Positions 331 through 17,623 of a stretch of DNA of 64,000 nucleotides are shown here, piece after piece. Under the pieces are notes generated by a model. The model was not told where the DNA came from and did not search any database. It saw only the letters and a program-made list of their open reading frames with translations. Source of the DNA: Clostridia bacterium (GTDB taxonomy: Bacteria > Bacillota > Clostridia > Oscillospirales > CAG-272); contig JAGBSP010000033.1 in assembly GCA_017631855.1 (NCBI GenBank), forward strand, positions 13,461 to 77,460, read 5' to 3'. Position 1 is the first letter of the stretch. Each line of letters starts with the position of its first letter. Position numbers and translations under genes: made by a program.

Positions 331-368
331 AATACTGTCCTCCTTTTTACTTTGCTTTAGACCTGATT

Positions 369-794
369 TTAGATTAATATACCATTACAATGATCCACCT
401 CATGCTGAATGATCTGTGCCGTCCAGCCGGTGAAGTTTTTCGTGCGCGTTTGCATTTCCAAGGTCTGATATTGTACCTTGATGGTCTTATAGCGTTTGCA
501 CTTACGGGGGCCGCCGAGAAGCGACAAACAGCCTTCCTCGGTGTCGTATGCGCCGTCCTTCTTGATGATCTCGGGATTGAGCATCACCGTGTACGTAGGT
601 GCTCGTCCACTCTCATCGAAAAAGGCGATGATGCGCTTGCGCTCTCCAATCATATTTGCCGCCATGCCGACACAGCTTTCTCTGTGCGCCATCAACGTAT
701 CCAGCAAATCCTGTGCGACCTGCAAATCTTCTTTCGCTGCGACCTCCGACTTCCCTGCAAGGAAAATGGGATCATGCATTAACTCTTTAACCAT
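369..794 (-). CDS. def: peptide deformylase, short form (141 aa)
   Basis: All three PDF motifs are present: GMAANMIG, EGCLS and HEVDHCNG (HExxH). The protein ends 6 residues after HEVDH, so it has no C-terminal extension. Confidence 0.93.
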   Translation of the reverse strand: MVKELMHDPIFLAGKSEVAAKEDLQVAQDLLDTLMAHRESCVGMAANMIGERKRIIAFFDESGRAPTYTVMLNPEIIKKDGAYDTEEGCLSLLGGPRKCKRYKTIKVQYQTLEMQTRTKNFTGWTAQIIQHEVDHCNGILI

Positions 795-797
795 CTA

Positions 798-1625: not shown

Positions 1626-1638
1626 CTGTTACACTTCC

Positions 1639-2523
1639 TTAAAGATCTTCTTTATAAAATATAAATCCCTTATGAGAATTCTTCTCGATTTCTCTATTAA
1701 TAAACTGCACCTCCTCTAAAAGTAACCGCTTTGTAACGATCGTACAATTACCATCTTCACTGATTTCAGGGAAATCAAACACCCCTGGCCTTAATGTAAG
1801 CACATCTCTAGGGGTATGATCAACTCCTCTGCTAGCAATAATTATAGCTCGATTAGGCGAAATTGGGCAAACATCATAAAGCGGTAAGCGAAGGTGATCA
1901 CCGATAAATACGAGCGGATAGCAATCACCAAGTATAAAATCACCTTCTTTAGGTTCTACAACAATAATATACTTACCTAACAATGAGTTGGTGTCACGTA
2001 GCATAAACCATTTAATAGGCGGATCAATCTCTGTATGATTTGCCACATCCTGAATTGACCGGCATTTCACCAAATACCCCAAATTGCGTTTCCAAAAATC
2101 CTCAAGATCTTCATTTCTTTGAAAGTACTTGTAAAAACCTTTGAATTCTTTTGATGCTTTATCGCTAAATTGCTCTTTTGCATTTATATTCCTAAAAGAC
2201 ATAATAGCAAAAAACAATTTAATAGCGCTATCTTCTTCCTCTGTAAGCTCAATTTTGCGCTTATCAAGAAACTTTACTTTGATTAATTCAGCAACTTCCC
2301 TCTCATATACGGATAAATCATATTCTATTTGAACGGGCACATCCGCGTAATTTATTTCATCACGATAAAGATTTCGCTCCATGAACACTTCGCGTATTTC
2401 ACATTTTGAAATAGCTTGGGATTCCTTATCGTAATAACAAGCTACCTTTCTATCACTGTCGCAGGCAAAATTACGCAAAATAAACTGCGGTATGTAATGA
2501 TGCCGTATAGGTTCTTTTCGCAT
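1639..2523 (-). CDS. DUF4238 family protein
   Basis: The N-terminus, HHYIPQFILRNFA, matches the H-Y-(I/V)-P-Q-F-Y-L-R-x-F signature I associate with DUF4238. 294 aa, AT-rich. Confidence 0.82.
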   Translation of the reverse strand: MRKEPIRHHYIPQFILRNFACDSDRKVACYYDKESQAISKCEIREVFMERNLYRDEINYADVPVQIEYDLSVYEREVAELIKVKFLDKRKIELTEEEDSAIKLFFAIMSFRNINAKEQFSDKASKEFKGFYKYFQRNEDLEDFWKRNLGYLVKCRSIQDVANHTEIDPPIKWFMLRDTNSLLGKYIIVVEPKEGDFILGDCYPLVFIGDHLRLPLYDVCPISPNRAIIIASRGVDHTPRDVLTLRPGVFDFPEISEDGNCTIVTKRLLLEEVQFINREIEKNSHKGFIFYKEDL

Positions 2524-2549
2524 AATTCTCCCTCCTTAATGATTTTAAG

Positions 2550-3053
2550 TTATCTTCCGTACTTTTCAAATATTTTATCAGCTCGATCTCTCGTGAAAAG
2601 CCACTCTTCCGGGATTTTATCCGTCGTTCCATATGCCTGCGCGGTTGGACCCCACGTATGCTCCATATGCAAAACAGTATCACCGCAACCACCTCTTGCC
2701 TTTCGCAAGACTTCAGCTATTTCACTTGGAGTAGCCAAATACATCTTCGGCAGTTGCAAATCATTCACATTTTCAAACTGCACAAGACAAAATATGGTCT
2801 TTTTGTGGTGCTTGTTCAGCCATTCGTCAATCGCCTCGTGATAAGTACGTCCCTTCTTAAAGCTTTGGGTTAATCCCCAACCACCGTCTTTGCTACCTTT
2901 AACTGATATTTTGAGCATCTCATCCCCACGGCTTGCTATCAAATCATACTCGGGTTGATCTGCGCCATACTGCACAGAAACATCATATCCATATCGTGCA
3001 AATTGAGCTGCCGCCATTCCTTCGGCTGCAACACCTACATGCCAAGAATTCAT
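2550..3053 (-). CDS. hypothetical protein with PD-(D/E)xK nuclease-like core
   Basis: 167 aa. GVAAEGMAAAQFARYGYDVS ... EYDLIASRGDEMLKISVKGS fits the G-x-x-A-E ... D-(L/I)-I ... (K/Q)-(I/V)-x-V-K layout of small restriction-endonuclease-fold proteins. Confidence 0.6.
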   Translation of the reverse strand: MNSWHVGVAAEGMAAAQFARYGYDVSVQYGADQPEYDLIASRGDEMLKISVKGSKDGGWGLTQSFKKGRTYHEAIDEWLNKHHKKTIFCLVQFENVNDLQLPKMYLATPSEIAEVLRKARGGCGDTVLHMEHTWGPTAQAYGTTDKIPEEWLFTRDRADKIFEKYGR

Positions 3054-3066
3054 TATCGCACCTTCC

Positions 3067-3465
3067 TTATTTCACAATCTCATATTCCCAATCGATGATA
3101 CCGCCGAACTCCTTGACGTTGGTATATCCGAGCTTGACAAGCTCCTCGGCTGCAATTTTGCTTCTTCTACCGCTACGGCAATAAACAAGTATTAACTGAT
3201 TTTTGTCTGGGAGCTCCTTCTCGGCGCGTTCGGCAATTTCATATTCGGGGATCAGTATTGCGCTGGGGATATGCCCCTCATCGTATTCGGACTGCGTTCT
3301 CGCATCAATGATGATATATCCGCTCTCGCTATCCATCAACGCCTTCGCTTCCGCACCGCTGAACTGATCATAGGATGCAGAACCTCCATCCGAGCATCCA
3401 ACGCATCCCAACGGCAACGCGAGGGTGAGAAGCATGAGCAAAAATCGTTTATTTCTTTTCAACAT
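3067..3465 (-). CDS. rhodanese-like domain lipoprotein
   Basis: Lipobox signal LALPLGCVGC. Rhodanese signatures IIIDARTQSEYDEGHIPSAILIP and active-site loop VYCRSGRRS. Confidence 0.88.
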   Translation of the reverse strand: MLKRNKRFLLMLLTLALPLGCVGCSDGGSASYDQFSGAEAKALMDSESGYIIIDARTQSEYDEGHIPSAILIPEYEIAERAEKELPDKNQLILVYCRSGRRSKIAAEELVKLGYTNVKEFGGIIDWEYEIVK

Positions 3466-3826
3466 ATATCCTTATACCCTCCGAAGCAAACTCCGCAGTT
3501 CCTTCACCGTACTTGTCGATGTTCTTCTTGAATCGCTCATCGACAACGTACATCTTGCCAAGCCCTGCAAGGATCTCATCAGTACAGGTGTAGTAGTTGG
3601 CGGTGATATGTGCCTGAAGCTCGGCTACAAGTGCCTGTGCTTCGGTAGAATCGGCACTCGCACCGCTCGCCTTGCACGCGGCAAACTCAGCAAAGATCGC
3701 CATCAAGCCGTCATTTGCCTCTGCCCACTTCTCTTTTGTATAGTTATTTGTCTTCTGCTCGTGTTCGCGATAAGCATCGGTGTTGCCCCAACGAGAGCGA
3801 GCTTCTGTTTTATAATCGTTATTCAT
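3449..3826 (-). CDS. TipAS antibiotic-recognition domain protein (stand-alone, no MerR HTH)
   Basis: 125 aa. RWGNTDAYREHEQKTNNYTKEKWAE ... ELQAHITANYYTCTDEILAGLGKMYVVDERFKKNID is typical of TipAS/Mta C-terminal domains. Overlaps the rhodanese ORF by 17 nt. Confidence 0.8.
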   Translation of the reverse strand: MNNDYKTEARSRWGNTDAYREHEQKTNNYTKEKWAEANDGLMAIFAEFAACKASGASADSTEAQALVAELQAHITANYYTCTDEILAGLGKMYVVDERFKKNIDKYGEGTAEFASEGIRIYVEKK

Positions 3827-3854
3827 TCTTTACCTTCTCAAAAAGCATTTTATT

Positions 3855-5384
3855 TTAGATATTGTTCTGTTCTCCCATAAACTTAATTGACATTAATTTC
3901 TCGTACAATTCTGGATTGTTTATGACAATAATTTTCAGCTCATTAACAGCTCTAGTAAGTATTTGATATAGCATTCCTTTTAGACTGTAATAATTCTTTC
4001 TTGCTACCAATCTATTATTGTCTGCATATCTAAAATTAGAGTCCATTGCAAAAACAACCCTATCAAATTCTTGGCCTATTACACCATGTGCTTTTTGTTC
4101 ACAAAGACATGATAGTGAGTCAACCGGTTCCGAAGAATACTGCGATGGTGTAAATGTTATAGCCTTCCACTCACCTGAACAATCCAGATAGTTCAGATAA
4201 TCTTGAGCATCGCTAACATTACTAAAATACTCTATCGTTATACCTTCATAATCCATATTATCTTTACTACTGCCAAATTCCATCATATTGTGAATAAAAG
4301 AAGCCAACTTTTTATTGGTTCTAATCTTAGTAGTTAATTTGCGTATTTTTGATGTGTTTTGAGGATAAAGTGCCATTAAGTACTCATGGATATCTTTTTT
4401 CTCATTATCCTTAAAATATTGTTTAGTATCATATGAAAATATTGTGGCAATTTTTTGATCGTACATATATTGAACAAAAGAATCCAGCTGATGCTTTCGA
4501 ATGCGATGAGCTTCATCCACCACAATCAAATCAGGTTTTTTTATTACAGGATTAAGGTCTTTGGCCTCGAGCACACTTACACATTTAATCTTCCACCTAT
4601 AATTCTTGTTTAACTCCCATTGTCCTTCATTTAATGTAGCGCAATGCAACACCAACACGGATTTTTTGCACTCTTGATACGTTTTCGCAATGTCATATGT
4701 AAGCAATGTCTTGCCGGTACCTGCATCGGCAGATATACAAAAAAACAAATACTCACCGTTATCTATCGAGGTCAATATCTCCTTCTTTTTCTTTGCTTGA
4801 TCTGGCGTTAGGAAATACTCACCGGACATAAAACGGTCCACCTTGTTAAAAGGAGAAACGAGATAGTTTGAAGGTTTGAAAAGCTTGTCTGGATCTAACT
4901 CAAAATCCACATTTTGATTAGCTAGCGCATCAACTAAATGTTGAGGTTCAACATTCTCAACACAATTATTTTCAGCATCATAACAATAAAACCCATCGTC
5001 CTCAATATACGTATATATTTTTAAAGGCTTTTCCAGAAATTTTAGATAATAATGCTGTTTATGCATTTGAGTAATGATGGTTTCAATTTTGCTTTCTTCA
5101 GGCAGCTTGCCTTTTAGCTCAATATTCACAATATAGTCTGTTCCGAATCGAAGCAAATCAAACTCGTTGGCTATTTGAGGTATTGAAAATCCGACATAGT
5201 ATCCATCAAGAATTCGAAATGGAGCCGGCATATCCGCAGACAACAACTCGCACAGTTTCCTCAAAGACACAACTTCATTCTTTTTCAAAAGCAACTTTGA
5301 TTTGTCTATCTTTATTTTCCCTTCATAATGCGCTGCATGAGTTTGACAAACAGAAGGTAAATACTGCGGTTTCATATGCCTCAC
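3855..5384 (-). CDS. NERD/PD-(D/E)xK-like N-domain fused to SF1 (DUF2075/UvrD-C-like) P-loop helicase-like ATPase
   Basis: N-terminal FDLLRFGTDYIVNIELKG gives a D...E-x-K core. Walker A is CISADAGTGKTLL and Walker B is LIVVDEAHRI. The SF1 C-terminal signatures are HGVIGQEFDRVVF and LYQILTRAVNEL. The track start at 5384 is GTG. ATG at 5375 behind GGGGTGAGG is an alternative start. Confidence 0.85.
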   Translation of the reverse strand: MRHMKPQYLPSVCQTHAAHYEGKIKIDKSKLLLKKNEVVSLRKLCELLSADMPAPFRILDGYYVGFSIPQIANEFDLLRFGTDYIVNIELKGKLPEESKIETIITQMHKQHYYLKFLEKPLKIYTYIEDDGFYCYDAENNCVENVEPQHLVDALANQNVDFELDPDKLFKPSNYLVSPFNKVDRFMSGEYFLTPDQAKKKKEILTSIDNGEYLFFCISADAGTGKTLLTYDIAKTYQECKKSVLVLHCATLNEGQWELNKNYRWKIKCVSVLEAKDLNPVIKKPDLIVVDEAHRIRKHQLDSFVQYMYDQKIATIFSYDTKQYFKDNEKKDIHEYLMALYPQNTSKIRKLTTKIRTNKKLASFIHNMMEFGSSKDNMDYEGITIEYFSNVSDAQDYLNYLDCSGEWKAITFTPSQYSSEPVDSLSCLCEQKAHGVIGQEFDRVVFAMDSNFRYADNNRLVARKNYYSLKGMLYQILTRAVNELKIIVINNPELYEKLMSIKFMGEQNNI

Positions 5385-5401
5385 CCCATTTCATGATAAT
5401 T

Positions 5402-7207
5402 TTATTTCACCGCCTTGATATATTCCCTTAAATACTTGTATGGGAATGGGATAACCGTTAGTTGCCCATTCTTAACAAACGAAACGCTCATAAGTGGTAA
5501 CAATTGTTCAAAGAAGTCGGGAGCATCCTTATATTTGACAATTCGTCGAATATTGGTTGAATGACTAATGCTATTACGCATTCCCTCTCCTATCTCACCT
5601 ACAAAGTAGTATGTATCTCCCCCTTGTTCAAAACACTTGATGTCCAAACACGAAGTCAAGAGTTCATCTCGTTTGCTTCTACCACGTAGTTTATTGTTTC
5701 CTTCCAAAAGTTCTGCATCTATTGCAAAGAGTTCCGGTAGCGTTATCCAATCAGTTCCCTTTATAATATTGATTTTACCGTCGGAATTTTTCAAAATACC
5801 TTGAACATCTTCAGATTTTGCCTTAGCATTCTCAAAAATCTCCACACACTCATGGTACTGATCCATATTGAAAAAGTCCAACTTGGATTCTGTAAAAGTA
5901 AAGCTACCATCGGACTTGATATTCATAAAGAAATACCTATTTACGCCATTATCGCACTTTGTGCATCCAAAGCAAAAATCCTCTTGATAGCCAAGTGCAT
6001 TCCAATCGAACAATGTTATTTGACCACTTAAAATATCTTTTTTGATAAGTAGTTCATGAACGATTGTAGAGATTGCAAACTCGCACTTTCCGGAAAAATC
6101 TTCAAATGTTATATGCTGAACAGCCGCATCTTCATGCTTCTCTTTATAGGGATCTTCTATATCCTCATAGTATGCTGCATTGTGAATAACACATATATTC
6201 AAAGATCCTTTGGAAACGCGCTTTCCAACTGTGGCTTTTACGCCATATTTTTCAAGAAGCTTTTCTGCTACATCACGACAAAATCTATCCGAATATTCGT
6301 CACCTATCTGATCAACTATTTTAATATTTTGTGCCGAAAGCATCTCTTGGATTGCTTTCAAATTTTCTTTTTGAGCTCTCCTCGAATAATCAAGTGCGGT
6401 ATATTCTTTAATTGTGTCAAATTCAATTGATGCAAGTCCTGCGAATTCCATATTAAAGTTTGACACAACGGATGCAAGCATACCTACTTTGCTTTTACGA
6501 TATTTTCTTATGTCCTGAAGATCAACAAACGGAATATCTGTTTTCTTACCATCAAGCTGACGCATGATAAAGGCAGGCTCATCATCTTCTTTCAGCTTTC
6601 TTCTTAGTGTACTCTTTCGAGAAAATACATACTTGGGATACTCCTCGAATTTTCTGGCACCAAACGTTATTTTCTTTCTGAGCAGCTCAGATGTGAAGGT
6701 ATGCATAGACATACAAAGCTTCATGTCTTGAGTAATACGCAACTCTAAACACGGAACTTGCCAAATGATATTTTTCTCCGATTTTTTATCATGTCGCAAC
6801 CATTCGTTATGGAAACAATAAAAGTGTCCGGTAAGATTGTTGCATTTCAAAAACTCGGATTTTGGGCTGCTCATGCTATTCAACAAAAGCTGAAGGACTT
6901 CACTTTCTTTGAGCAACGATGCGTCCTCTTTTGAGAACGTAATTTTTTCTCCTTCCTCGTGTGAATCAAAGGTTCGCTTCAATGCATCAAAATTACCATC
7001 ATTACGATTCATTAAAACAAGAAAAGTTCTTCCTCTTTCAAACAGAACTGCGCGAACTGAATCGTTCAAGAATGGTGCATCAATTATATATGCTCCATTT
7101 TTGAAATATTTATCGTCAGTTTTTACACGAAATACATCATACTTTTCGTTGAAAGCCGATATGTCTACCTTAAAAATAACTTGATTCGTTCTAATCGGCG
7201 AATTCAT
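5402..7207 (-). CDS. hypothetical protein (601 aa), no recognisable domain
   Basis: Long AT-rich ORF with ATG at 7205-7207 behind AGAGGTG. It overlaps the upstream helicase gene by 17 nt and sits 17 nt before the downstream ATPase gene. The only notable motif is a CFGCTKC cysteine cluster. Confidence 0.8.
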   Translation of the reverse strand: MNSPIRTNQVIFKVDISAFNEKYDVFRVKTDDKYFKNGAYIIDAPFLNDSVRAVLFERGRTFLVLMNRNDGNFDALKRTFDSHEEGEKITFSKEDASLLKESEVLQLLLNSMSSPKSEFLKCNNLTGHFYCFHNEWLRHDKKSEKNIIWQVPCLELRITQDMKLCMSMHTFTSELLRKKITFGARKFEEYPKYVFSRKSTLRRKLKEDDEPAFIMRQLDGKKTDIPFVDLQDIRKYRKSKVGMLASVVSNFNMEFAGLASIEFDTIKEYTALDYSRRAQKENLKAIQEMLSAQNIKIVDQIGDEYSDRFCRDVAEKLLEKYGVKATVGKRVSKGSLNICVIHNAAYYEDIEDPYKEKHEDAAVQHITFEDFSGKCEFAISTIVHELLIKKDILSGQITLFDWNALGYQEDFCFGCTKCDNGVNRYFFMNIKSDGSFTFTESKLDFFNMDQYHECVEIFENAKAKSEDVQGILKNSDGKINIIKGTDWITLPELFAIDAELLEGNNKLRGRSKRDELLTSCLDIKCFEQGGDTYYFVGEIGEGMRNSISHSTNIRRIVKYKDAPDFFEQLLPLMSVSFVKNGQLTVIPFPYKYLREYIKAVK

Positions 7208-10200
7208 TTATACACCTCTTTATCATATCAAATGCTTTATGGATGGGTTGGTTAGGATTGTTCGAATCGATCAACGAAGGAATTTGCACAACGGTTATAT
7301 CTCCATAACTCGTCCTAATCGGCTCGGCAAATTGCTCAGACACTACGTTAATTACGATGATACATTTTGCATTACAAGTATCTGCTTTCGACTTGATTTT
7401 CTTGAGCATTTCCTCAGTACCAAATCGCGTTCTCTCGTGCCAATTCTTAAAGTCAATGAAAATATCAGTGTTTTCAATCTTATAATCGAACATCTCAAAC
7501 ACTTCGGAATCTTCGATTTCTGTCAATTTCAGTCTTAAATAGCTCCAAAGCAAAAATCTTCCGGCCATCTCTCCCAACGCACCCTTGTAAATGTTGTTAA
7601 ACAGCGGTGGAGAAAGAATAAAATCATTATAATCGAATGTAGTTGCCCATCCCTTACATTCAAAGAAGTTTCGGAGACTTTGATTTTTCATCAAAAGATC
7701 CAGCTTGGCTGTAGACGATGAAACTTCGTACGGGTACTCTTTTGTTTTTCCGAAACTAACAAGAACTTTATTGTAATCCGACTCCTGATTATAATAAATT
7801 GTGTTCATTGGTTTCGGTAATTTTACATACGTATTATGTGCCATAAAGCTACAGCTTTCTTCCAACGATGACAGTGTTGGATGCTGCAACGTGTACTCTC
7901 TAAGCATCTTCCACTGCGCCATACGAGACTCCGTCCAATCTTCTCGCAAAACGTTATTGATCATCTTGTTTACGCGAACAGACAATAACGATGCCTCATC
8001 AGCAAAATCTCCACCAGCATAAGCTTTTCTATGTTTTTCAATATGAGCAAGCAAAGCCCTAAACTCGGGATTCAAAAGTCTGTTTCCGTCATCGATGTCA
8101 AAATCAATGCTTTCGGAAATACGATAGTCCGCAAAAACATAAACTGTTTTTCTCTTTTGATTTGTTCTACAAATACGACCAATTGCCTGAATTATAGTAC
8201 GAGTAGACATTAAAACCACACTTTTAGTATCGTAAACCGATTTTGAGTCATCCCAATAAGGATGTCCCGTCAAAAATGTCTTAAATGCCTTTTTGACATG
8301 TTTTTTTGTTTCTTGTGGTGAAAGTTCAGCCCACTCTTGCAAAAATTCTACATAATAAAGATACTTTACGAAGTCCTCATCTGAAAGATTTTCACTTAAA
8401 TTCACAAAGATATTCGTAGGCTTGTCCAGATAGATCGCGTCAAAATCTTTTTCCCCTCTCGATTCTCGATCATTGCTACTTACCAATTGACCAATTAAAT
8501 TTTGAGGAATGCCATATTGCAAGTTTTGTCCTGCACCTATTGTTTGATATACAGAAATAACAAACAACTTTTCACCATGCTGCAACCTATCAATGATTAG
8601 CTCTTTGTTAATGTCAAATTCTTCGCCATCTAACAAGCAGACAGTATTTTTGTCAAATTTCTGACCTCTTTCTTTATGGATAAACTTGAATATTTCATAT
8701 AGCATATCCATATCAAGATACATATCGCCCGGACGAGGATGTTTGGTTAACACACACAGAAAAGACTGAATGTCGTCATGGCGCACAAATTGCTTATATG
8801 CCATAGCAATTCTAAAATATCTCTCTTTATTGTAATTATTCTTTTCTTGGCTCAGTGCCCTCTCTACTTTATCAAAAATATGTTGTGCAAGCTCAGTGTC
8901 GTTGAAAACGCCTTCCCATATTTTTTCGTGATAGACTTCTCCCAAAAGTTGAACATCAATCTCAACATCCTTATATCCGGAAATCGATCTTTCAAATTCA
9001 GTTCTGAGTCTACTCCTATCGGATTCTCTCACAACATTATATTTTGTCTGCATCTTTGCTCGCAGATACTTATAATCGAAGTTTCCAACAACAGTAGGAA
9101 CAGATGCTGTGGCAGATATTCCTATTACCTTAGCTTTTTCGCAAAATCTCAAAAGGATTTTTTCAGGTGTCACCTGAAAAGAATACATCATGATTTTTGA
9201 TTGCATATCATGCGCGTAATCATCTTCAAATGCATAATAACGGAATCCGTTTTCATAAAATGACAAATCAAAGTCCGCATTCTCTATATCGCCCTTCGGC
9301 TTGTGCGAAGAAATAAGAATTTGTGAAGTTATGTAGTCAATATGCTTGTCACTTAAACGGAATTCAGCCAAAATCGAACGGATTGCTGATTCCAACGAAA
9401 ACTCATCTTCTCCCGGTTTTCTTCGTTCTTCTCTGCACTGCATATAGTTATATGCAAGCATATTTATGCCGCCCGAAAAATATTTTATAAAACCTCTTAG
9501 TTTACCAAGCATCACTTGGATATTCCCATCCTCACTACTCGGCTTCTCGGAAGAAAACTGTATAGCATTTATTCTCTCAGTCGAGTCGCTGACAGTTGTG
9601 ATATAGGACTTATTTCCGTCCAAAATTGCATGGAACTGATGGTCTTGGAACAAAAAATTCCGTGATTCAGCATCTTCGTTGCTTACCGTCTTATGACTGA
9701 ATTGCAACGAATACTGACTATGAATAGCATCAGCCTTTTCTCGTATGTTGTCAACGATAAACTGAAGGTTTGAGTGTTTATAATTGTTTGCAGCCTGACG
9801 CTCTGTCCATTTTTTAGACGGTGCGGTCATTGCTTTCGGAAACTCGATAGTATGCAAGACGGAATAGATATCGTTAAACAGTTCTATATAATCGATTTTT
9901 TCTCTAAGTCCGTTGGAAATAATATTTCTCAGTATAGTTTCCTTGGTGGCATCAAACTCATCAATAAAAATGATCGCATTGTCGATTATTTTTGAGTTAT
10001 AAAACATATACGACGGTTCTACAATTGTAGCATTTCTCGCAAGGAATTTATCCATACTCATAAATATGATTTGCTTATCACTCGTAAATACAGCCGGATA
10101 CAACTCACCCAGCCACTGCCACTTTTCATCTGTCTTTATCGCATAAATTCGGTCTTTTACAGTTTTAAATTCGCGCGCCAAAATCGCCTGCACATATCGC

Positions 10201-10667
10201 CTAAATGCAGGTTCAGATCTTCCCATCAAATTTTCTTTGATGCTCGCAGCATAAGGTCTCAAGCTTTTTCCACCCGCGTTCTTTTGAGATTCTCTTAGGA
10301 AGCGAACATCGTTTCTCATTGCTTTGAATTCATCCGTTTTTCGAATTTCAACGGGAATTCTTTTTTCAAGTTCTTCTGTCAGATATTGAATTACACAATC
10401 GGCGTTTGAATCTATGAAAAGAAACTTTTCCTTAAACTCAGCTAAATGGCCGCCTTCTCTAAAGTGCTTCTCTAAATCTTCTTTAGGAAGATTCTTTTTC
10501 AAGGTGGTTACAAAGAAGAATTTGCGCTCAGCATTGGCTTCTTCCATAGATGCCTCGTATATGTATTTCAATACATTATAGGTTTTGCCAAAACCCGTAG
10601 GCATATCAAGCAACAAAAGCCCATTTTCAATTCCGTTAGAACAATAGTCCTTTATAGCTGTGTACAT
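7191..10667 (-). CDS. SF2 (DEAD/DEAH, type III restriction Res-like) helicase with C-terminal PD-(D/E)xK nuclease-like domain
   Basis: Helicase motifs: I DMPTGFGKTYN, II IFIDEFDATKE, III GISATAS, V-like YQTIGAGQNLQ, VI QAIGRICRTNQ. The C-terminus, GALGEMAG ... FEMFDYKIEN ... IFIDFKNW, looks like a D...D-x-K nuclease core. AGGAG precedes the ATG at 10665-10667. Confidence 0.88.
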   Translation of the reverse strand: MYTAIKDYCSNGIENGLLLLDMPTGFGKTYNVLKYIYEASMEEANAERKFFFVTTLKKNLPKEDLEKHFREGGHLAEFKEKFLFIDSNADCVIQYLTEELEKRIPVEIRKTDEFKAMRNDVRFLRESQKNAGGKSLRPYAASIKENLMGRSEPAFRRYVQAILAREFKTVKDRIYAIKTDEKWQWLGELYPAVFTSDKQIIFMSMDKFLARNATIVEPSYMFYNSKIIDNAIIFIDEFDATKETILRNIISNGLREKIDYIELFNDIYSVLHTIEFPKAMTAPSKKWTERQAANNYKHSNLQFIVDNIREKADAIHSQYSLQFSHKTVSNEDAESRNFLFQDHQFHAILDGNKSYITTVSDSTERINAIQFSSEKPSSEDGNIQVMLGKLRGFIKYFSGGINMLAYNYMQCREERRKPGEDEFSLESAIRSILAEFRLSDKHIDYITSQILISSHKPKGDIENADFDLSFYENGFRYYAFEDDYAHDMQSKIMMYSFQVTPEKILLRFCEKAKVIGISATASVPTVVGNFDYKYLRAKMQTKYNVVRESDRSRLRTEFERSISGYKDVEIDVQLLGEVYHEKIWEGVFNDTELAQHIFDKVERALSQEKNNYNKERYFRIAMAYKQFVRHDDIQSFLCVLTKHPRPGDMYLDMDMLYEIFKFIHKERGQKFDKNTVCLLDGEEFDINKELIIDRLQHGEKLFVISVYQTIGAGQNLQYGIPQNLIGQLVSSNDRESRGEKDFDAIYLDKPTNIFVNLSENLSDEDFVKYLYYVEFLQEWAELSPQETKKHVKKAFKTFLTGHPYWDDSKSVYDTKSVVLMSTRTIIQAIGRICRTNQKRKTVYVFADYRISESIDFDIDDGNRLLNPEFRALLAHIEKHRKAYAGGDFADEASLLSVRVNKMINNVLREDWTESRMAQWKMLREYTLQHPTLSSLEESCSFMAHNTYVKLPKPMNTIYYNQESDYNKVLVSFGKTKEYPYEVSSSTAKLDLLMKNQSLRNFFECKGWATTFDYNDFILSPPLFNNIYKGALGEMAGRFLLWSYLRLKLTEIEDSEVFEMFDYKIENTDIFIDFKNWHERTRFGTEEMLKKIKSKADTCNAKCIIVINVVSEQFAEPIRTSYGDITVVQIPSLIDSNNPNQPIHKAFDMIKRCINEFAD

Positions 10668-10685
10668 AAATTCTCCTTTTTCGTT

Positions 10686-11075
10686 TTAGAATCGTCTTGT
10701 GATTTCCTTTAATATTTCTTCGTCTGCTGGGCAGAACTCGTAGTTCGATATCTCGCTCGGCGTAATCCATTTGATATCGTTATGCTCCAACTTCTGTGGC
10801 TCGCCCTCGGTAATGGTCGCGGTAAAGAGCGTCAGATGCACCATCAAGTCGGGATATTCGTGGATAACATCCATAAACTCATCACCGACAGAAAGAAGAA
10901 CATTTAATTCTTCCTTGCACTCTCTAACGAGCGCCTGCTCTTTCGTCTCTCCCTGCTCAACCTTGCCGCCAACGAATTCCCATAGGAGTCCTCGCGCCTT
11001 GTGCGCCGGGCGCTGGCAGATCATAAATTTATCGCCCTGCCAAACGAGAGCAGCTACTACCTCAGTTATTTTCAT
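10686..11075 (-). CDS. Nudix hydrolase, MutT-like
   Basis: Nudix box GGKVEQGETKEQALVRECKEELNV. 129 aa. The start ATG overlaps the upstream stop (ATGA at 11072-11075). Confidence 0.9.
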   Translation of the reverse strand: MKITEVVAALVWQGDKFMICQRPAHKARGLLWEFVGGKVEQGETKEQALVRECKEELNVLLSVGDEFMDVIHEYPDLMVHLTLFTATITEGEPQKLEHNDIKWITPSEISNYEFCPADEEILKEITRRF

Positions 11076-13201
11076 ATTTCCTCAATCCCCAAACTCTTCA
11101 AGTACTGATATGTACCGTCATAAAATTCGGGCAAGCGGGTGCTATCTTCCCAAAATCCGCTAACTGTTTTATTCGGATTACCTTCAGGCACACAAATCAC
11201 CATTCCAGCTCTTGCGCGAGTAAGTAGAACACGATACGCATTCAGCATATATTTCATAAGCTCTTGTTTGCTTTCGGTGCTCCCTATTTGCTCAATCCAC
11301 TTGGTCTGTCCATTGAAACGATAGAAGCGCCACTTGCCGTCCTCATATCGCATATCGGCATCCCAAAGGAGACACGTATAGTCAAGTTCCAAGCCCTGAA
11401 CCTGAATTTCTGTAGCTGCATCCTCAAGATAATTTGACGATCTTACATCGGCTTTATCGTCAAGGAACCAGTGAACCGCATTTTCATCACCTGCTGGCAA
11501 TATATGTATGGCTAACGGCTTAAACCTCGCAGATTCTTTCGTTACCAAAACTCCGGTACGCTCAGTTCCTCTGACCTTATCGTGTAGCCATTTTCTCGCC
11601 TTTGCCATATCTCGAGTTAAAACAATCGGATACTTATCTTTGATTTCACTATACAGTGTCGATGCATTATCATCAAAAGACAAAAGCGAATGAACAAACG
11701 CCGAAAGTTTCTCTGCTCTGAACGAACGTAATGAAACACCCAAATGCAAGCTTTCAGCATAAGTTACATTGTGGTTATCTTTCAACAACTCATTAACTTT
11801 ACCCTCGGCATACTCTGCATCTGTCAATTTGGGAGAGATGTAAACGTTCCAATGTGGGAACTGTTCGTTTAGCGCCTTGATCCATTCGGATATTCCAGCC
11901 TCACCGGTGTTGATCTCCTGACCGCCGCCAACAAGGCAAACTATCGTTGCCCAGTCCTCGCGCTGATCAAGCGACCAAATCAAAAATGCCGCTTCTGATA
12001 ACGGGAAATTTGGAACTTTCAGTTTGTTACCATACGTTCCGCCTCGTTTCAAGTAATCAGCAAGTCTTTTGTGGGTCCAAGAGCGCTGTGCTTCATCAAA
12101 AATTGCTACGTGCTCAACCTCACCAAATCCGGCTTTTTCTAATTTTACAGCCTTTTCGGGATCGATTTCAAGAACGCCGTTCTCGACAGGGTTCTTTATT
12201 TTTGCCAACATGTTATCGCGATATCGGTGAATCATTTGAATTGACTTCGACACCTCACGACGAGAGTCGGTCATTTTCTTCTTTTCACCATTCGCTCTAC
12301 ACTTGCTGTAATTGTCCTGTGCAAGTGCTTCAGTCAATACCGCAACGAGAGGTCCATTACCCGATAGATAAACAGCACCCTCGTCCTTGACCGGCTCTTT
12401 ATTGCCCTGATATGTTTGCTTAATTGCAACATCAAGACCGACAAGCGTTTTGCCAGCTCCAGGAACACCGGTAACAAAACAAATGCTCTTTTTCTGATTT
12501 TGTTTGCTGTCTTTTATAACGTCTAAAATATAAGCGATGGTTCTATCTGTAGAAACCTTGTCCGCTTCATGTCGGGTAATGTTTTCAACAGAGTGATTTT
12601 CGTATAAGGTTTTAGCTGCCTCAATAATTGTCGGCGTTGGAGCGTATGGACTAATAATCCAGTTGTCATCGACAGGTGTTTCATTCGGAAACTCTTTGAG
12701 CACCTCAGCAATTAAATTCGCAACACCCGATTTTCCCGACATCAGCGGGTTAACCACTCTGTCATCATAAACAGACATTTGGATTTCAGTAGATACGTTA
12801 TGATAATTTGTTGCAATAAGGATCGGTACTATAAGATTATTCTGACTAAACTTATGAAAGTTTTTCAAGTCGAGCGCATAATCAAGTACCTGATCGACAT
12901 CTGCTTCTATTATTCTGGACTCTCCGACCTTAAACTCGAGGCAAAACACGATTCCCTTAAGAAGCAATACAACGTCAATTCGCTTACCAAGACGAGGAAT
13001 ATCGTATTCAAAGATGATTTTGCCGTCCTTGTTTGAAAACTCGGACAAAATCTCTTTCATAATCGAGATTTCCAATTTCCATGCCTCTCTTGTTGTAGTG
13101 AGAGCTTCCCCATGATATCTCTCGCACAAAGCACCAAATATTGAGTTTTCGCTTGTGGTAATAAATTCTGTAAAACTGCTATTATATAAACAACGGCTCA
13201 T
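11072..13201 (-). CDS. DUF2075-type protein: PD-(D/E)xK-like N-domain + SF1/Schlafen-group-3-like P-loop ATPase
   Basis: N-terminal IPRLGKRIDVVLLLKGIVFCLEFKVGE gives D...E-x-K. Walker A is FVTGVPGAGKTLVG and Walker B is VAIFDEAQRSW. The C-terminal LLTRARAGMVI matches the SF1 signature. AGGAG sits 8 nt before the ATG at 13201. Confidence 0.88.
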   Translation of the reverse strand: MSRCLYNSSFTEFITTSENSIFGALCERYHGEALTTTREAWKLEISIMKEILSEFSNKDGKIIFEYDIPRLGKRIDVVLLLKGIVFCLEFKVGESRIIEADVDQVLDYALDLKNFHKFSQNNLIVPILIATNYHNVSTEIQMSVYDDRVVNPLMSGKSGVANLIAEVLKEFPNETPVDDNWIISPYAPTPTIIEAAKTLYENHSVENITRHEADKVSTDRTIAYILDVIKDSKQNQKKSICFVTGVPGAGKTLVGLDVAIKQTYQGNKEPVKDEGAVYLSGNGPLVAVLTEALAQDNYSKCRANGEKKKMTDSRREVSKSIQMIHRYRDNMLAKIKNPVENGVLEIDPEKAVKLEKAGFGEVEHVAIFDEAQRSWTHKRLADYLKRGGTYGNKLKVPNFPLSEAAFLIWSLDQREDWATIVCLVGGGQEINTGEAGISEWIKALNEQFPHWNVYISPKLTDAEYAEGKVNELLKDNHNVTYAESLHLGVSLRSFRAEKLSAFVHSLLSFDDNASTLYSEIKDKYPIVLTRDMAKARKWLHDKVRGTERTGVLVTKESARFKPLAIHILPAGDENAVHWFLDDKADVRSSNYLEDAATEIQVQGLELDYTCLLWDADMRYEDGKWRFYRFNGQTKWIEQIGSTESKQELMKYMLNAYRVLLTRARAGMVICVPEGNPNKTVSGFWEDSTRLPEFYDGTYQYLKSLGIEEI

Positions 13202-13215
13202 AAGAGAAACTCCTA

Positions 13216-13428
13216 TTATTTATTATCAGGAACGATTTCCATGATCTCATCGACCGTACACTCAAGCGCTGTACAGATCTTAACCAACACATCGCTTGAA
13301 ACGGTCGCTCCGTCTTTTTTCATCTTCGCAAGTGTTGTGGGGCTAATCCCTGCCTGCGCAGCAAGGTCCTTACTTTTGATCTCGCGATCGATCATCAATT
13401 TGAATAGTTTCTTATAGCTTGCAGCCAT
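13216..13428 (-). CDS. XRE-family helix-turn-helix transcriptional regulator
   Basis: HTH segment LAAQAGISPTTLAKMKKDG. I take the start as the ATG at 13426-13428 (MAASYKKL) behind GAGGTG. The track start at 13440 lies upstream of that RBS. An extended -10 (TGGTATAAT) lies upstream on the minus strand. Confidence 0.85.
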   Translation of the reverse strand: MAASYKKLFKLMIDREIKSKDLAAQAGISPTTLAKMKKDGATVSSDVLVKICTALECTVDEIMEIVPDNK

Positions 13429-13660
13429 TTTACACCTCAAATAATTAAAGTATTATATATTTAATTATACCACTATTTTCACCACAAATCAACAATATTC
13501 TCAAATATTATTCGCGAAGTTGAAATTTATTTCATGTTTGCCAGCTGGCGTAAACATCGTTATGACCTTTTTTGCATGGTAGAGATCGTTTTACGTCAAT
13601 AATCTTTTCACATGATAAAATTTATTAAGCCTTCGGGCAATAAATTTTAAGGAGAAAAAC

Positions 13661-14836
13661 ATGGCAAACGTTATGCAAAAACCAAACGGAACCTATCTTG
13701 TGCGAATCTCTTGTGGAAGAGATATTATGACAGGTAAGCAAATTCTACGCGGACGCATCTTCAAACCGTCAAACCCCGATTTAAGTCAAGAAAGACTCCA
13801 GAAAGAGCTTAATGAATTTATCGAAGAGTTCACAGACGAACTACAATGCGAACGCAATAGAAAAAAGCCGGAGAACAAAACTGTTTCCGACTTTGCGAAG
13901 GAGTATCTTTCTATTCAAAAAACGTCCCTCTCGCCTGGCTCCTATAACTTTTATCAAAACATCATTGAAAAACATATTCTTCCTATGTTCGGGCGAATGC
14001 GCCTACGTGACATCAAAACCTATCACGTACAGGATTTTATTTTGCGCCTCAATTCTCTTTCCAGGAGCGACGGCAAACCCGGCCATATATCTCCATCTAC
14101 TGTCAAGCGCTATACAAGTGTTCTGCGCTCTATGCTAACAATGGCATATAAGTTATACTATATTGACGATGACATAGGCCTATCACGCCGTTTAACATTT
14201 CCTAAGGAGCGTTATCAAGAGGTTGACGTGTTCACCATAGAAGAAACAAAAGCAATCCTCACTGCCGCTAAAACAGAGCCAATTAATATACGCTTGCTGA
14301 TCGAACTTGCTCTTTTCACCGGCATGCGCCGTGGTGAGATCGTTGGACTTAAATGGTCTGATATCAATTTTGACAAGCAATGTCTGTCCATCAAGAGAAG
14401 CATTTATAAACCCAAAGGCGAGAAATCTATTGAGAAAGAACCGAAATCACATTCGAGCATTCGTACTATCGCTATTCCGAACTGTCTATGTGAAACACTC
14501 GCGGAGTACAAGGTCTGCCAAGAGCGGCATTCCCTGTCACTTGATACTTGGCAAAATCTCGATTACGTATTTACTGACGAGAACGGCAACGTAATGAATC
14601 CACAAACCCCCACAAAGCAATTCTCACATTTTCTTGCAAGACACAATATCCGACATCTGAAATTTCATTGTTTGAGACATACCTCTGCTACTCTTCTACT
14701 TTCCAACGGTTGCGACATCAAAACGGTTTCCGCGCGTCTCGGACATTCAAGCATAGATACTACAAATATCTACGTACACGTGCTTGAGAGTGTTGATAGA
14801 CAAGCTGCCACTACATTTGAAAATCTATGCAATTAA
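13661..14836 (+). CDS. int: tyrosine recombinase / phage-type integrase
   Basis: C-terminal catalytic region GMRRGEIVGLKW ... HCLRHTSATLLLSNGCDIKTVSARLGHSSIDTTNIYVHV supplies the R...H-x-x-R...H...Y residues. AAGGAG precedes the ATG at 13661. Confidence 0.95.
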   Translation: MANVMQKPNGTYLVRISCGRDIMTGKQILRGRIFKPSNPDLSQERLQKELNEFIEEFTDELQCERNRKKPENKTVSDFAKEYLSIQKTSLSPGSYNFYQNIIEKHILPMFGRMRLRDIKTYHVQDFILRLNSLSRSDGKPGHISPSTVKRYTSVLRSMLTMAYKLYYIDDDIGLSRRLTFPKERYQEVDVFTIEETKAILTAAKTEPINIRLLIELALFTGMRRGEIVGLKWSDINFDKQCLSIKRSIYKPKGEKSIEKEPKSHSSIRTIAIPNCLCETLAEYKVCQERHSLSLDTWQNLDYVFTDENGNVMNPQTPTKQFSHFLARHNIRHLKFHCLRHTSATLLLSNGCDIKTVSARLGHSSIDTTNIYVHVLESVDRQAATTFENLCN

Positions 14837-14840
14837 AACC

Positions 14841-14881
14841 GAAAAGCAATTTAACGACTAAAACTCGCTAAATTGCTTTTC
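14841..14881. terminator. bidirectional hairpin between convergent int and hipA-like genes
   Basis: 13-bp perfect stem GAAAAGCAATTTA (14841-14853) / TAAATTGCTTTTC (14869-14881), followed by TTTGTTTC. Confidence 0.7.
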
Positions 14882-14899
14882 TTTGTTTCTGTATGCGCC

Positions 14900-15952
14900 T
14901 TATTTGACTATTTGATTATATCTTCCCATAACCAAATCAATAATAACCTGTGATTTCACTTTCATATTCAGTTTTGCAATCACATCTCGTACCATCTCTT
15001 CGGTAACTTCGGGAATATATGACTTGTAATTCGGATACTCTTCCATAAGCGCATTAAACAATGAAATCAACATATCTTTGGCATCCGGCTTTGATGGATA
15101 TCCACGAGAAATCAATGCCATATTATTGTCAAAATTAGGAGCCAATCCTAATAGTTCACCGGTTTTAACATCACGCAATAATCCAAAATTATTTGTATGT
15201 CTGTCAGGGTTAGCACAGATTGTATCCAAAAAAATCATTCTAACATAATCTGGTATAGCTCGAGGACAAAGATTATTAAGTGCCTTTATTACATCAGAAT
15301 ATTCTTCATTGTCTCCCATAAAAGACGAAGCAGGCTCAAAATTCACAGAAGCTGCATTGGTAAAATCCAATGACATAATAAAATCAAAGCCTTGTTTATA
15401 TATAGCCATGTTAAAACCAAATTTTTTTCCCAATTCATATACAAACAATTCAGAAAACATTTCATCATTTGTTGCTCTTTTGTACATCCACCATTGGCCT
15501 TCTTTGAGTCGCCAACATTTTTCAAAACTTCCCAAATTAGTCAACTCAGGAGTGATAATTTTTTCGGATAAATTACGTTGAGCTGCTTCATTAAAACTGT
15601 TATAGCTTCCTTTTAATGCAAGCCATGAAAAATAGTTCTCATCAAATTTCACATCCGAATATGACAATTGTGATCCAATTGGACGAACCCAATAATTATC
15701 GGTTATTGTGGCTCCATTAACATGAATTACAGTTGAAACATCATCACGTTCTACCAATCGCAATGCTTTTTTTAACAATCTTGAATTAGAACGATGACTA
15801 TCTATAGCACGCGTTTCGAGCCAAAGATCCGCATTCTGAATTTTTTTCAAATACATAGGCAGCAAAGAATCATTAACGACAGTCAGCTTATTATCATTCC
15901 ATATAGCAACAAGCGTATCTCCACTGAATATCTCGTAATTTCTATCAGCCAT
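14900..15952 (-). CDS. hipA: HipA-like serine/threonine kinase toxin (HipA_C-type)
   Basis: C-terminal kinase core ICANPDRHTNNFGLLRD ... LGLAPNFDNNMAL matches D-R-H-x-x-N and the following aP-x-(Y/F)-D of HipA_C. Its start overlaps the XRE stop (TAATG). Confidence 0.8.
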   Translation of the reverse strand: MADRNYEIFSGDTLVAIWNDNKLTVVNDSLLPMYLKKIQNADLWLETRAIDSHRSNSRLLKKALRLVERDDVSTVIHVNGATITDNYWVRPIGSQLSYSDVKFDENYFSWLALKGSYNSFNEAAQRNLSEKIITPELTNLGSFEKCWRLKEGQWWMYKRATNDEMFSELFVYELGKKFGFNMAIYKQGFDFIMSLDFTNAASVNFEPASSFMGDNEEYSDVIKALNNLCPRAIPDYVRMIFLDTICANPDRHTNNFGLLRDVKTGELLGLAPNFDNNMALISRGYPSKPDAKDMLISLFNALMEEYPNYKSYIPEVTEEMVRDVIAKLNMKVKSQVIIDLVMGRYNQIVK

Positions 15953-16179
15953 TATTCGCTCCTCCCCTTCTCATCATCTTCAGGAATAAACTCCATTATA
16001 TCATCTAGTGTACAATTTAGAGCCTTGCAAATCTTGCCAAGCACTTCAACCGTTACGTTGTTACCCGAACTCATCTTGCTGATCGTAAAATTACTGATAC
16101 CGGCAAGTTGCGCGAGCTCCTTCTTTTTCATGTCTCTATCGATTAGTAATTTCCAAAGTTTCTTATAGCTAACAGCCAT
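15952..16179 (-). CDS. XRE-family HTH regulator (HipB-like antitoxin candidate)
   Basis: Paralogue of 13216-13428 (MAVSYKKLWKLLIDRDMKKKELAQLAGISNFTISKM). It has the same GAGGTG-N4-ATG leader and the same extended -10 TGGTATAAT upstream. The ATG at 16177-16179 is preferred over the track start at 16191. Confidence 0.85.
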   Translation of the reverse strand: MAVSYKKLWKLLIDRDMKKKELAQLAGISNFTISKMSSGNNVTVEVLGKICKALNCTLDDIMEFIPEDDEKGRSE

Positions 16180-16307
16180 TTTGCACCTCAAAATAGTATT
16201 ATCATTTTATGAGTCAATTATACCATAAAATTCTGCTGATGTCAACAATTTATTTTAGCGATTGCAAAATTATTTGTCCGTTTAATTCACAAAAATAGAT
16301 ATTTTAC

Positions 16308-16336
16308 TTGACAAATTGCTAAAACAGTGGTATAAT
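16308..16336 (+). promoter_or_regulatory. consensus sigma-70/SigA-type promoter with no downstream ORF
   Basis: TTGACA (16308-16313), a 17-nt spacer, then TATAAT (16331-16336). Confidence 0.6.
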
Positions 16337-16444
16337 ATAATCAGACCAAAGTCCTACAAAAACGTGAAGTACATAGTTTTTTGGTGCATACTTTTAGTGC
16401 ATACCCCTTAAAACTATGAACCAAATGTACATTTTCGAGGCACG

Positions 16445-16525
16445 ACGATATCACTCAAAAAGACCAAAATAACGTAAAATAGCCGACGATAACGTGAAAT
16501 AATCCACGATAATGACTAAAAACCC
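16445..16525 (+). repeat. four tandem degenerate ~20-nt direct repeats (ACGATAAyG..AAA.A..CC)
   Basis: The units are ACGATATCACTCAAAAAGACC, AAAATAACGTAAAATAGCCG, ACGATAACGTGAAATAATCC and ACGATAATGACTAAAAACCC. Units 2/3 and 3/4 each match at 14 of 20 positions by hand alignment. Confidence 0.5.
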
Positions 16526-16630
16526 CGGTTCATAGGGCAGTTGGGGTATTAGAGACCATAAGTTCAAGTTTTGTCACGCGTTGGGGGGAGATCTCGCAAG
16601 TTCAAATCTTGCCATTCTGACTATGCAAGA

Positions 16631-16664
16631 AAGCCTTGAAAGCATAAGTTTTCAAGGCTTTTTT
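16631..16664 (+). terminator. intrinsic terminator
   Basis: Stem AAGCCTTGAAA (16631-16641) / TTTCAAGGCTT (16650-16660) followed by a T-run. Confidence 0.75.
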
Positions 16665-16675
16665 ACGTATCGTTA

Positions 16676-17479
16676 TTATTTTTTCATATCTTTTTTATAC
16701 TGGGACGGGGTTTTACCAAAGTGCTTTTTGAAGCAGTGACAAAAGGTATTCAGTGAATTGTATCCTGCCTCATAGGCAATTTCGGTTAAGGTTTTGTCGC
16801 TGTTTTTTATTCTCGTTGCAACATACTCGCTTCTTACCGCGCCGAGATAAGTTCTGAAAGGTACCTTCAACTTATCACAAAAGAAATGAGCAATATAGGA
16901 CGGATGATAGCCGAATTCCTTTGCCAAATATGAAATGGTAAGGGGTTTCTCGAAATTATCGTGTATGTACGCGATCATTCGAGGTGCAAGATTCAATTCT
17001 TGCACTTCCTTCAACGGTTTTAGTTCAAGCACCGCTTGGATTCCCGCGATTGCAACGTATGCCCATCCGACCGATTCAAACTCGTTTTTGGCATCAACCA
17101 TTCCGCGAAACGCCAGAGCGGCGCTCTCGGGGATTCTCTCGGCCTTGATCAACGGGCATTCGGGCTGCATCGTTATAATTTGCGGCATATATTTTGTAAT
17201 TAAATCGGTGTTGCACATCACCGAAATACATTCAGTTTCCTCGTTCCCAGACGAATCGCCCAAAAGATACTCGTGAATCGTATTTGGAAAAATAACGATC
17301 GTATCTCCTGCCTTTAAGATATAGACCGTTTGATCGACCTTAATCTCTTGTATACCGGAAAAGCAATGTGCAATCTCAAGCTTATTATGAAAATGCGAAT
17401 CAAAGGAATGCGCACTTTTGTGATAATCAAAATAAATTTCCTTTTTACTGTTCTCGTAATATGGGTACATCTTTCTCAC
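16676..17479 (-). CDS. AraC-family transcriptional regulator (cupin N-domain + HTH_AraC)
   Basis: The C-terminal TLTEIAYEAGYNSLNTFCHCFKKHFGKTPSQY is a canonical AraC HTH. The N-terminal region is cupin-like. Divergent from the GH3 gene. Confidence 0.9.
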   Translation of the reverse strand: MRKMYPYYENSKKEIYFDYHKSAHSFDSHFHNKLEIAHCFSGIQEIKVDQTVYILKAGDTIVIFPNTIHEYLLGDSSGNEETECISVMCNTDLITKYMPQIITMQPECPLIKAERIPESAALAFRGMVDAKNEFESVGWAYVAIAGIQAVLELKPLKEVQELNLAPRMIAYIHDNFEKPLTISYLAKEFGYHPSYIAHFFCDKLKVPFRTYLGAVRSEYVATRIKNSDKTLTEIAYEAGYNSLNTFCHCFKKHFGKTPSQYKKDMKK

Positions 17480-17623
17480 CTCTGTCTTATTATCTTATTA
17501 TAACATATTTTTCTCGAAATGTAGCATATTTTCGTGAATATTTTGTGGAAAACTGCTTTTTTCTGTGACAAATAAATGCTATAATGATAATGAATGAATA
17601 TTTTACTACAAGGAGAAAACAAA

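Follow-up and report, generated by a model that had tools for sequence, protein, structure and literature searches.

Single proteins that combine a nuclease with a helicase are the closest described relatives, in design, of the gene at the centre of this study. Nhi of Staphylococcus epidermidis (SERP2475) is one such protein (Bari et al., bioRxiv 10.1101/776245); both it and lactococcal AbiO carry an N-terminal PD-(D/E)xK nuclease and an SF1 helicase, overlapping Pfam DUF2075, in one polypeptide encoded within a defence island. A ‘Nhi-like’ protein with an N-terminal nuclease and a PF09848 domain, having no sequence identity to Nhi, provides stand-alone defence (Millman et al. 2022, bioRxiv 10.1101/2022.05.11.491447) and has been studied further (10.1101/2025.07.10.664194). 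PADLOC, for its part, catalogues the candidates PDC-S41 and PDC-S07 as separate single genes. At the level of whole islands, cDHS1/2 of Pseudomonas aeruginosa have conserved anchors that bracket variable defence cargo, the conserved flanks of cDHS2 including a NUDIX gene (PMC10250203), and integrase, XRE and NUDIX genes co-occur in actinomycete integrative elements (AICEs; PMC11706625). Here we analyse a trio of genes—an XRE regulator, a 709-amino acid (aa) PDC-S41 family protein (hereafter S41) and a Nudix hydrolase that matches PDC-S07—found in a 64,000-nucleotide (nt) stretch of DNA from a Clostridia bacterium (GCA_017631855.1, contig JAGBSP010000033.1, positions 13,461 to 77,460; ‘the window’).

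The three genes share one orientation (reverse strand) and are followed by a DdmD-like gene. The 70-aa XRE/Cro-C1-type helix-turn-helix regulator (13216–13428; HTH_26 72 bits, HTH_3 33.8 bits) ends in TAATAA, and a gap of 14 nt that includes TAGGAG leads to the ATG of S41 at 13201 (gene 11072–13201). The stop codon of S41 overlaps the start of the 129-aa Nudix gene (10686–11075) in an ATGA at 11072–11075; beyond the end of Nudix at 10686, a junction of 18 nt (10668–10685) with a ribosome-binding site (RBS), AAGGAG, precedes the ATG of the 1158-aa DdmD-like gene at 10667. An original prediction, made from the letters of the window, had called these genes and their spacings, and both are confirmed by the open reading frame (ORF) map and the sequence; its domain calls—XRE, PD-(D/E)xK plus DUF2075, and a MutT-like Nudix—are upheld by Pfam, by conservation and by a model of the S41 N-terminal domain. 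The tight, operon-like layout it described is also correct. No terminator-like site lies at any junction in an 11-kb scan (3000–14000), the total of 8 such sites matching a shuffle expectation of 7.5.

What the trio amounts to is a different matter. We consider it probable that these genes represent a regulator, an autonomous Nhi-like candidate effector and a gene of the island backbone, rather than a three-part system, and that Nudix is not the partner of S41; the trio would then stand nearest the promoter in a long train of genes, all in one orientation, within an integrase-associated defence island of a gut/rumen Clostridia genome. The earlier proposal of a Nudix that serves the ATPase as a signalling, damaged-dNTP-handling or antitoxin-like partner finds no support here, most S41 homologues being without a Nudix and most close Nudix homologues lying elsewhere.

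S41 matches the PADLOC PDC-S41 profile over its full length (817.2 bits; residues 1–709 against profile positions 1–653 of 657). Residues 238–672 (11186–12490) form the DUF2075/Schlafen group-3 helicase domain, which scores 221.7 bits against a gathering cut-off of 24 for PF09848 (SLFN-g3_helicase/DUF2075) and contains both a Walker A motif, GVPGAGKT (residues 245–252), and a Walker B motif, IFDEAQR (residues 367–373). Residues 1–180 (12662–13201) make up a predicted nuclease domain, with E65, D76 and E89-x-K91 as its candidate catalytic set. Across an alignment of 49 diverse S41 relatives (32–66% identity), G245–T252, D369, E370, Q372 and R373 are invariant, as are E65, E89 and K91, with D76 conserved in at least 90%. 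The isolated N-terminal domain yields a confident AlphaFold2 model (pLDDT 82.7), and the best Protein Data Bank (PDB) neighbours returned for it by Foldseek are all PD-(D/E)xK nucleases—Cdn1 (E=2.9e-4), McrC, Can2, SfsA, Bax1 and Hjc—with probabilities reaching 1.0, yet TM-scores of only ~0.35. That model alone was searched, the full-length model being poor (pLDDT 49.6, shallow alignment) and left unused; one further homologue search gave relatives at 89–96% identity only, and so an alignment no deeper. Residue pattern and predicted fold together support the assignment of this region as a PD-(D/E)xK nuclease, the E...D...ExK residues being placed on a restriction-endonuclease-like fold.

In its architecture, an N-terminal nuclease and an SF1/DUF2075 helicase within one protein, S41 conforms to the plan of Nhi, as the original prediction had proposed, and like Nhi and AbiO it resides in a defence island. 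A direct comparison is afforded by the true Nhi/AbiO gene found in the same island (3855–5384, reverse strand; PADLOC AbiO and Nhi ~480 bits each): the nuclease cores of the two proteins align at the same residues, 63–93, in both. Saying this, S41 belongs to a separate sequence family, is 200 aa longer than Nhi, and aligns with its island neighbour at an hhalign probability of 16% over 31 columns; the PADLOC Nhi model gives no match to S41 at E<=0.01, and the AbiO model a weak one only (16.4 bits, 7e-4). The ‘Nhi-like’ Bacillus protein of Millman et al. has, by its description, the same architecture. By analogy with Nhi, S41 would act as an autonomous, single-gene effector in which a DUF2075/SF1 ATPase-helicase drives the PD-(D/E)xK nuclease, and most likely would load on and degrade invading phage or plasmid DNA; both the defence role and the mechanism are those of a candidate.

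The S41 family is large, with 822 clusters (50% identity) at E<1e-30, and defence genes make up most of its surroundings in other genomes: SIR2-pAgo, type I and type IV restriction enzymes, a GajB-like helicase, GmrSD, CD-NTase and Wadjet. No S41 was found in 24 genomes of the same genus or 16 of the same order, and unrelated metagenome-assembled genomes (MAGs) from the ruminant gut carry copies that are 95% identical; we therefore take the gene to have been acquired horizontally. Ranking second in frequency among the genes beside S41, after Nudix, is a ~753-aa protein that matches models of type IV methyl-directed restriction enzymes and directly adjoins S41 in ~10 of 97 loci (among them L004, L008, L022, L023, L033, L036, L067 and L072).

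How often, then, do S41 and Nudix go together? Nudix lies directly downstream of S41 in 16 of 80 close homologues, drawn from 80 different species at 80–95% identity, and in 5 others the two genes are no more than a few kb apart; in an unbiased sample of the class (399 genomes) it is adjacent in 4 of the 9 genomes that bear S41, among distant S41 relatives in 1 of 12, and among relatives on viral contigs in none of 10. The adjacency is not unique to this genome, as the prediction's own check required, and most S41 homologues are without it. Other genes dock just as tightly behind S41—peptide deformylase (PDF), low-molecular-weight (LMW) phosphatase, Tpt1, DUF6998 and JetA—and GmrSD and CD-NTase are found at the same position too. 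Plotted on the S41 tree, the presence of Nudix is scattered, needing at least 15 changes against a shuffled mean of ~19. Co-divergence of the two proteins is weak to moderate (Mantel r=0.39 within subtype A, where close pairs drive it; overall r=0.31, p=0.058), too modest to indicate an ancient obligate pair, and the consistent co-occurrence and co-inheritance by which a two-gene system would be recognised are not seen.

The view from Nudix is similar. Relatives occur in 109 of the 399 class genomes and close ones in ~33, of which only 3 adjoin S41; the neighbours of close copies include a type II restriction enzyme, a CoiA-like nuclease, MurG, PBP5, an aldo-keto reductase, SfsA and a rhamnosidase, and some homologues are fused to Fe-ADH, alpha/beta-hydrolase, PAS, PNPOx or GNAT domains.

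Sister islands, in which the same XRE heads a comparable train, show what can lie between the two genes. All five of the extended Wadjet-type islands carry an identical XRE protein and run XRE-S41-JetA-JetB-JetC-JetD-Nudix, continuing with TipAS, with an Mrr-like nuclease and then TipAS, or with a YobI-like ATPase; the window-type order is XRE-S41-Nudix-DdmD-DdmE-Nhi-TipAS. In the Wadjet-type islands it is the stop codon of JetD that overlaps the Nudix start by ATGA, just as that of S41 does in the window, and Nudix overlaps TipAS directly at the slot that here holds DdmDE and Nhi. The sequences of L182 and L183 agree at 97.7% across the 8.8 kb that end with the S41 stop, beyond which identity falls to 79.5% for Nudix and 83.8% for TipAS, placing a recombination breakpoint exactly at the S41/Nudix junction. 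The C-terminus of S41 (E-E-I) is itself conserved, giving a purine-rich 3' end regardless of the gene that follows. Translational coupling, read earlier as the mark of a partner, loses that meaning here: JetABCD intervenes in sister islands under the same ATGA, the breakpoint coincides with the S41 stop, and each gene has become a pseudogene beside an intact copy of the other.

That reciprocal decay is seen as follows. In the P0217 lineage, where an identical S41 protein is present in 223 blocks of the collection, an intact S41 stands beside a Nudix broken by a frameshift near codon 72–74 and altered by a Glu-to-Val change in the catalytic box; in L032, just a 29-aa remnant of Nudix is left. 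In L178 the converse applies, S41 being split into three ORFs (290, 316 and 93 aa; 10226–12356) with Nudix and the Wadjet genes intact. Such natural knockouts in both directions argue against Nudix as an antitoxin-like or obligate partner. Splitting of S41 is observed in some Wadjet-type islands (L168, L175, L178). Separately, L155–L162 hold an overlapping trio of genes without a Pfam match (381, 143 and 578 aa; 6545–9850) between the dead Nudix and PDF, possibly an uncharacterised cargo system.

Several observations nevertheless count against separating the two genes, and would fit a facultative two-gene variant of defence formed by S41 and Nudix. In it the nuclease-helicase would be tuned or protected by the pyrophosphatase, which might, for instance, clear away damaged or modified dNTPs freed by DNA degradation and so spare the host chromosome from mis-marking or nicking. 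Their adjacency is strongly enriched, far above random expectation; it involves two Nudix lineages just ~35% identical to each other and recurs once in a distant pair, in G284 (S41 44–51% identical, Nudix 47%). On the Nudix tree the S41-linked copies cluster (10 changes against 16.2 by chance), though they are not monophyletic, and all 15 tightly linked copies retain an intact Nudix box. Both genes, moreover, always occur in the same gene train across the XRE-anchored island family, persisting in every Wadjet-type and DdmDE-type sister island, so that a looser functional link, one for which adjacency is not needed, may exist. Set against a two-gene variant are the 75–80% of close S41 homologues, and all of the viral-contig relatives, that are without Nudix; the whole operons tolerated between the two; the natural knockouts of either gene beside the other; and the equal coupling of Nudix to JetD, a type II restriction endonuclease or SfsA. 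Neither is a substitute pyrophosphatase apparent, there being no MazG or MazG-like gene near S41 in five Nudix-less genomes; two small ORFs near S41 in Nudix-less genomes gave no PDB match. On balance we judge the two-gene variant unlikely, and retain the reading of S41 as an effector in its own right.

The Nudix protein itself belongs clearly to its superfamily (NUDIX_4 80.3 bits against a cut-off of 35; NUDIX 60.8 against 21.1) and has an intact box, GX5EX7REX2EE, at residues 37–56 (G37...E43...R51-E52...E55-E56), the terminal G of GX5EX7REUXEEXGU being replaced by N. Its closest PDB relatives are MutT (5x1x) and CTP pyrophosphohydrolase (2rrk). With MutT and NudG (Orf135) it shares the NUDIX_4 fold family and the intact box; it differs in scoring below both equivalog cut-offs (TIGR00586, NCBIfam MutT, 81.1 bits against 97.9; PRK10546, NudG, 103.1 against 156) and in its accessory, island-borne status. 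The likeliest assignment from sequence is an intact MutT/NudG-type (d)NTP pyrophosphohydrolase, with nucleotide-pool sanitation as its activity.

Might it be an ordinary housekeeping MutT, here by chance? It is the sole MutT-like match in this 85%-complete genome, its GC content at third codon positions (GC3) is host-like, and close homologues adjoin core genes elsewhere; against this, just 2 of 24 genomes of the genus have it, which makes it accessory there, it lies inside a low-GC, integrase-bearing island whose backbone order recurs in many others, and its scores fall under the MutT and NudG thresholds. A chance housekeeping gene is, to our minds, very unlikely.

The 151-bit match of Nudix to PDC-S07 invites another interpretation, that of an independent single-gene defence stacked next to S41, which would work by depleting or sanitising the nucleotides required by phages. 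Nudix is indeed constant in the backbone of a defence island, and phage resistance has been reported for Brc167, a NUDIX integron cassette that acts alone (bioRxiv 10.1101/2024.07.02.601719). The PDC-S07 model does not discriminate, though, giving 143–158 bits to Nudix copies in all contexts, those beside MurG, PBP5, aldo-keto reductase and SfsA included; since copies in housekeeping contexts score equally, the label is uninformative on defence. Many homologues are in metabolic contexts or fused to metabolic domains, the GC content is host-like, and one widespread lineage has only a pseudogene of it; taken together, an independent Nudix defence appears quite improbable. We also considered Nudix as a sanitiser of modified cytosine tied to C5 methyltransferases and type IV enzymes, an idea prompted by G011, L096, L036 and L052, and rejected it: such enzymes are nearby in 3 of 24 S41-plus-Nudix loci, 12 of 73 S41-only loci and 5 of 33 Nudix-only loci, with no Nudix-specific enrichment.

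Beyond the 18-nt junction, which corresponds to cargo slot B of the island family, the reverse strand carries DdmD-like (7191–10667; PADLOC DdmD 126 bits), DdmE-like (5402–7207) and Nhi/AbiO cargo genes, and then a TipAS-domain gene (3449–3826; PF07739 140.7 bits; GC3 0.53), a 132-aa rhodanese-like gene (3067–3465; GC3 0.55), whose homologues in L178 and L180 are 87–90% identical and annotated PF00581 Rhodanese, and a 141-aa PDF (369–794; GC3 0.62). A functional tie of Nudix to DdmDE, instead of to S41, would fit the recurrence of Nudix, 18 nt and DdmD-DdmE in L004, where DdmDE is just 50% identical, and the way the Nudix allele switches together with the right-hand cargo in sister islands; as DdmD is present in 0 of 33 Nudix-only loci, the DdmD relatives of L040 and G231 have no Nudix beside them, and Wadjet-type islands keep Nudix in the absence of DdmDE, we accord such a tie the slimmest chance of all.

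In the reading that we favour, Nudix is part of the fabric of the island. Composition is a mosaic: its GC3 of 0.57 falls with the small backbone genes (0.51–0.62, host-like) and that of S41 (0.41) with the cargo (0.31–0.41, or 0.33–0.37 where S41 is counted apart). The order of PDF, TipAS and the 132-aa rhodanese-like gene is repeated in other islands, at 69–91% identity: TipAS follows Nudix at 69–88% identity in L007, L080, L087 and L178–L183, PDF lies downstream of S41 and/or Nudix at 69–91% identity in 19 loci, and Nudix directly adjoins PDF in L096–L098. XRE and Nudix can also bracket quite different genes. In G011, a genome of the same genus, an M.HaeIII-like C5 methyltransferase and a 162-aa gene lie between this XRE, promoter included, and this Nudix; in L096 the place between them is taken by a CoiA-like nuclease and a type IV enzyme resembling SauUSI (PDB 7clg, whose identity as SauUSI comes from PMC7913695). 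A wider backbone common to the window and G011 was sought and dismissed, only XRE and Nudix being common to both; codon 21 of the G011 methyltransferase (L145:6575–7700), which should encode a conserved Gly, reads as an in-frame TGA, the result of pseudogenisation or of faulty assembly.

Our proposal is that Nudix, TipAS, the rhodanese-like gene and PDF would constitute a constant backbone of host-like GC, between whose members defence cargo is swapped. The S41/Nudix slot would accept nothing or Wadjet, and the Nudix/TipAS slot DdmDE plus Nhi, an Mrr-like nuclease, a YobI-like ATPase or nothing; the ATGA overlap would belong to the Nudix cassette, taking in the stop codon of whatever gene precedes it. 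S41 and Nudix would abut in the window because the slot between them is empty here. The backbone genes may not be passive: they may be a shared support set for any cargo that attacks nucleic acid (Nudix, for instance, clearing modified or damaged dNTPs against self-targeting), or homology anchors and translational docking points for the exchange of whole defence operons by recombination, suggestions that we offer as somewhat unlikely.

Control of the train most likely falls to XRE, which would repress it from a conserved promoter of its own. Immediately upstream of XRE sits the top-scoring sigma70-like site of the 3000–14000 scan, a candidate promoter (13464–13492, reverse strand) with TTGATT, a spacer of 17 nt and an extended -10 element, TG-n-TATAAT, which by its match to consensus would drive XRE and the genes behind it. 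The arrangement of -35, extended -10 and a GAGGTG RBS is kept in other loci that carry the same XRE. A 9-nt perfect inverted repeat (13441–13468), ATAATTAAA and TTTAATTAT separated by 10 nt, overlaps both the -10 element and the probable start of transcription; it is a candidate XRE operator, albeit one in an AT-rich region where a chance match is possible. An identical XRE protein occurs in 636 blocks of the collection, as part of a core of integrase and XRE-S41 in every place shown.

That integrase, a tyrosine recombinase (13661–14836, forward strand; Phage_integrase 116 bits), diverges from XRE and occupies the same position in all XRE-anchored sister islands; it is carried within window positions 1–17,500, a region of low GC against the 49% of the genome. 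A search for att sites gave just one 16-nt AT-rich repeat, which is unconvincing, and a collection of E. coli genomes, also searched, contained no match. The low-GC region (1–17500) is a co-oriented train in which small genes of host-like GC (XRE, Nudix, TipAS, rhodanese-like and PDF) alternate with low-GC cargo, and the same backbone order with other cargo appears in many contigs of gut and rumen Clostridia. On the far side of the integrase (L178–L183; window 14900–16191) an XRE2 and HipA-like pair is also conserved, at 77–78% identity, with variable cargo behind it: GmrSD_N plus AAA_15/21, an LRR-Roc-COR protein, or AIPR plus HEPN. In L179 and L181 a CBASS pair (SAVED plus CD-NTase) is inserted between integrase and XRE. 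The stand-alone TipAS antibiotic-recognition domain (3449–3826) and the extra, minimal PDF (369–794), both constant in the island, resemble genes for drug sequestration or target duplication, a hint of small-molecule protection beside phage defence.

The island resembles cDHS1/2 of P. aeruginosa in its layout; here the anchors lie inside a single co-oriented and nearly gapless train, with several slots and translational overlaps. For compact defence islands of this kind, tight spacing, even an ATGA overlap, is no evidence of common function, as the start of one and the same Nudix overlaps different genes in different islands (S41, JetD or a restriction enzyme). Nor should a match to PDC-S07 be taken as a defence gene, and counts of PDC-S07 in defence surveys are likely to be inflated. 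The XRE-anchored islands, whose left arms are nearly identical and whose right-hand cargo differs (Wadjet, DdmDE plus Nhi, Mrr-like or YobI-like), offer a natural series in which to study the exchange of cargo, and one that is also suited to testing PDC-S41, an abundant Nhi-like candidate in gut Clostridia.

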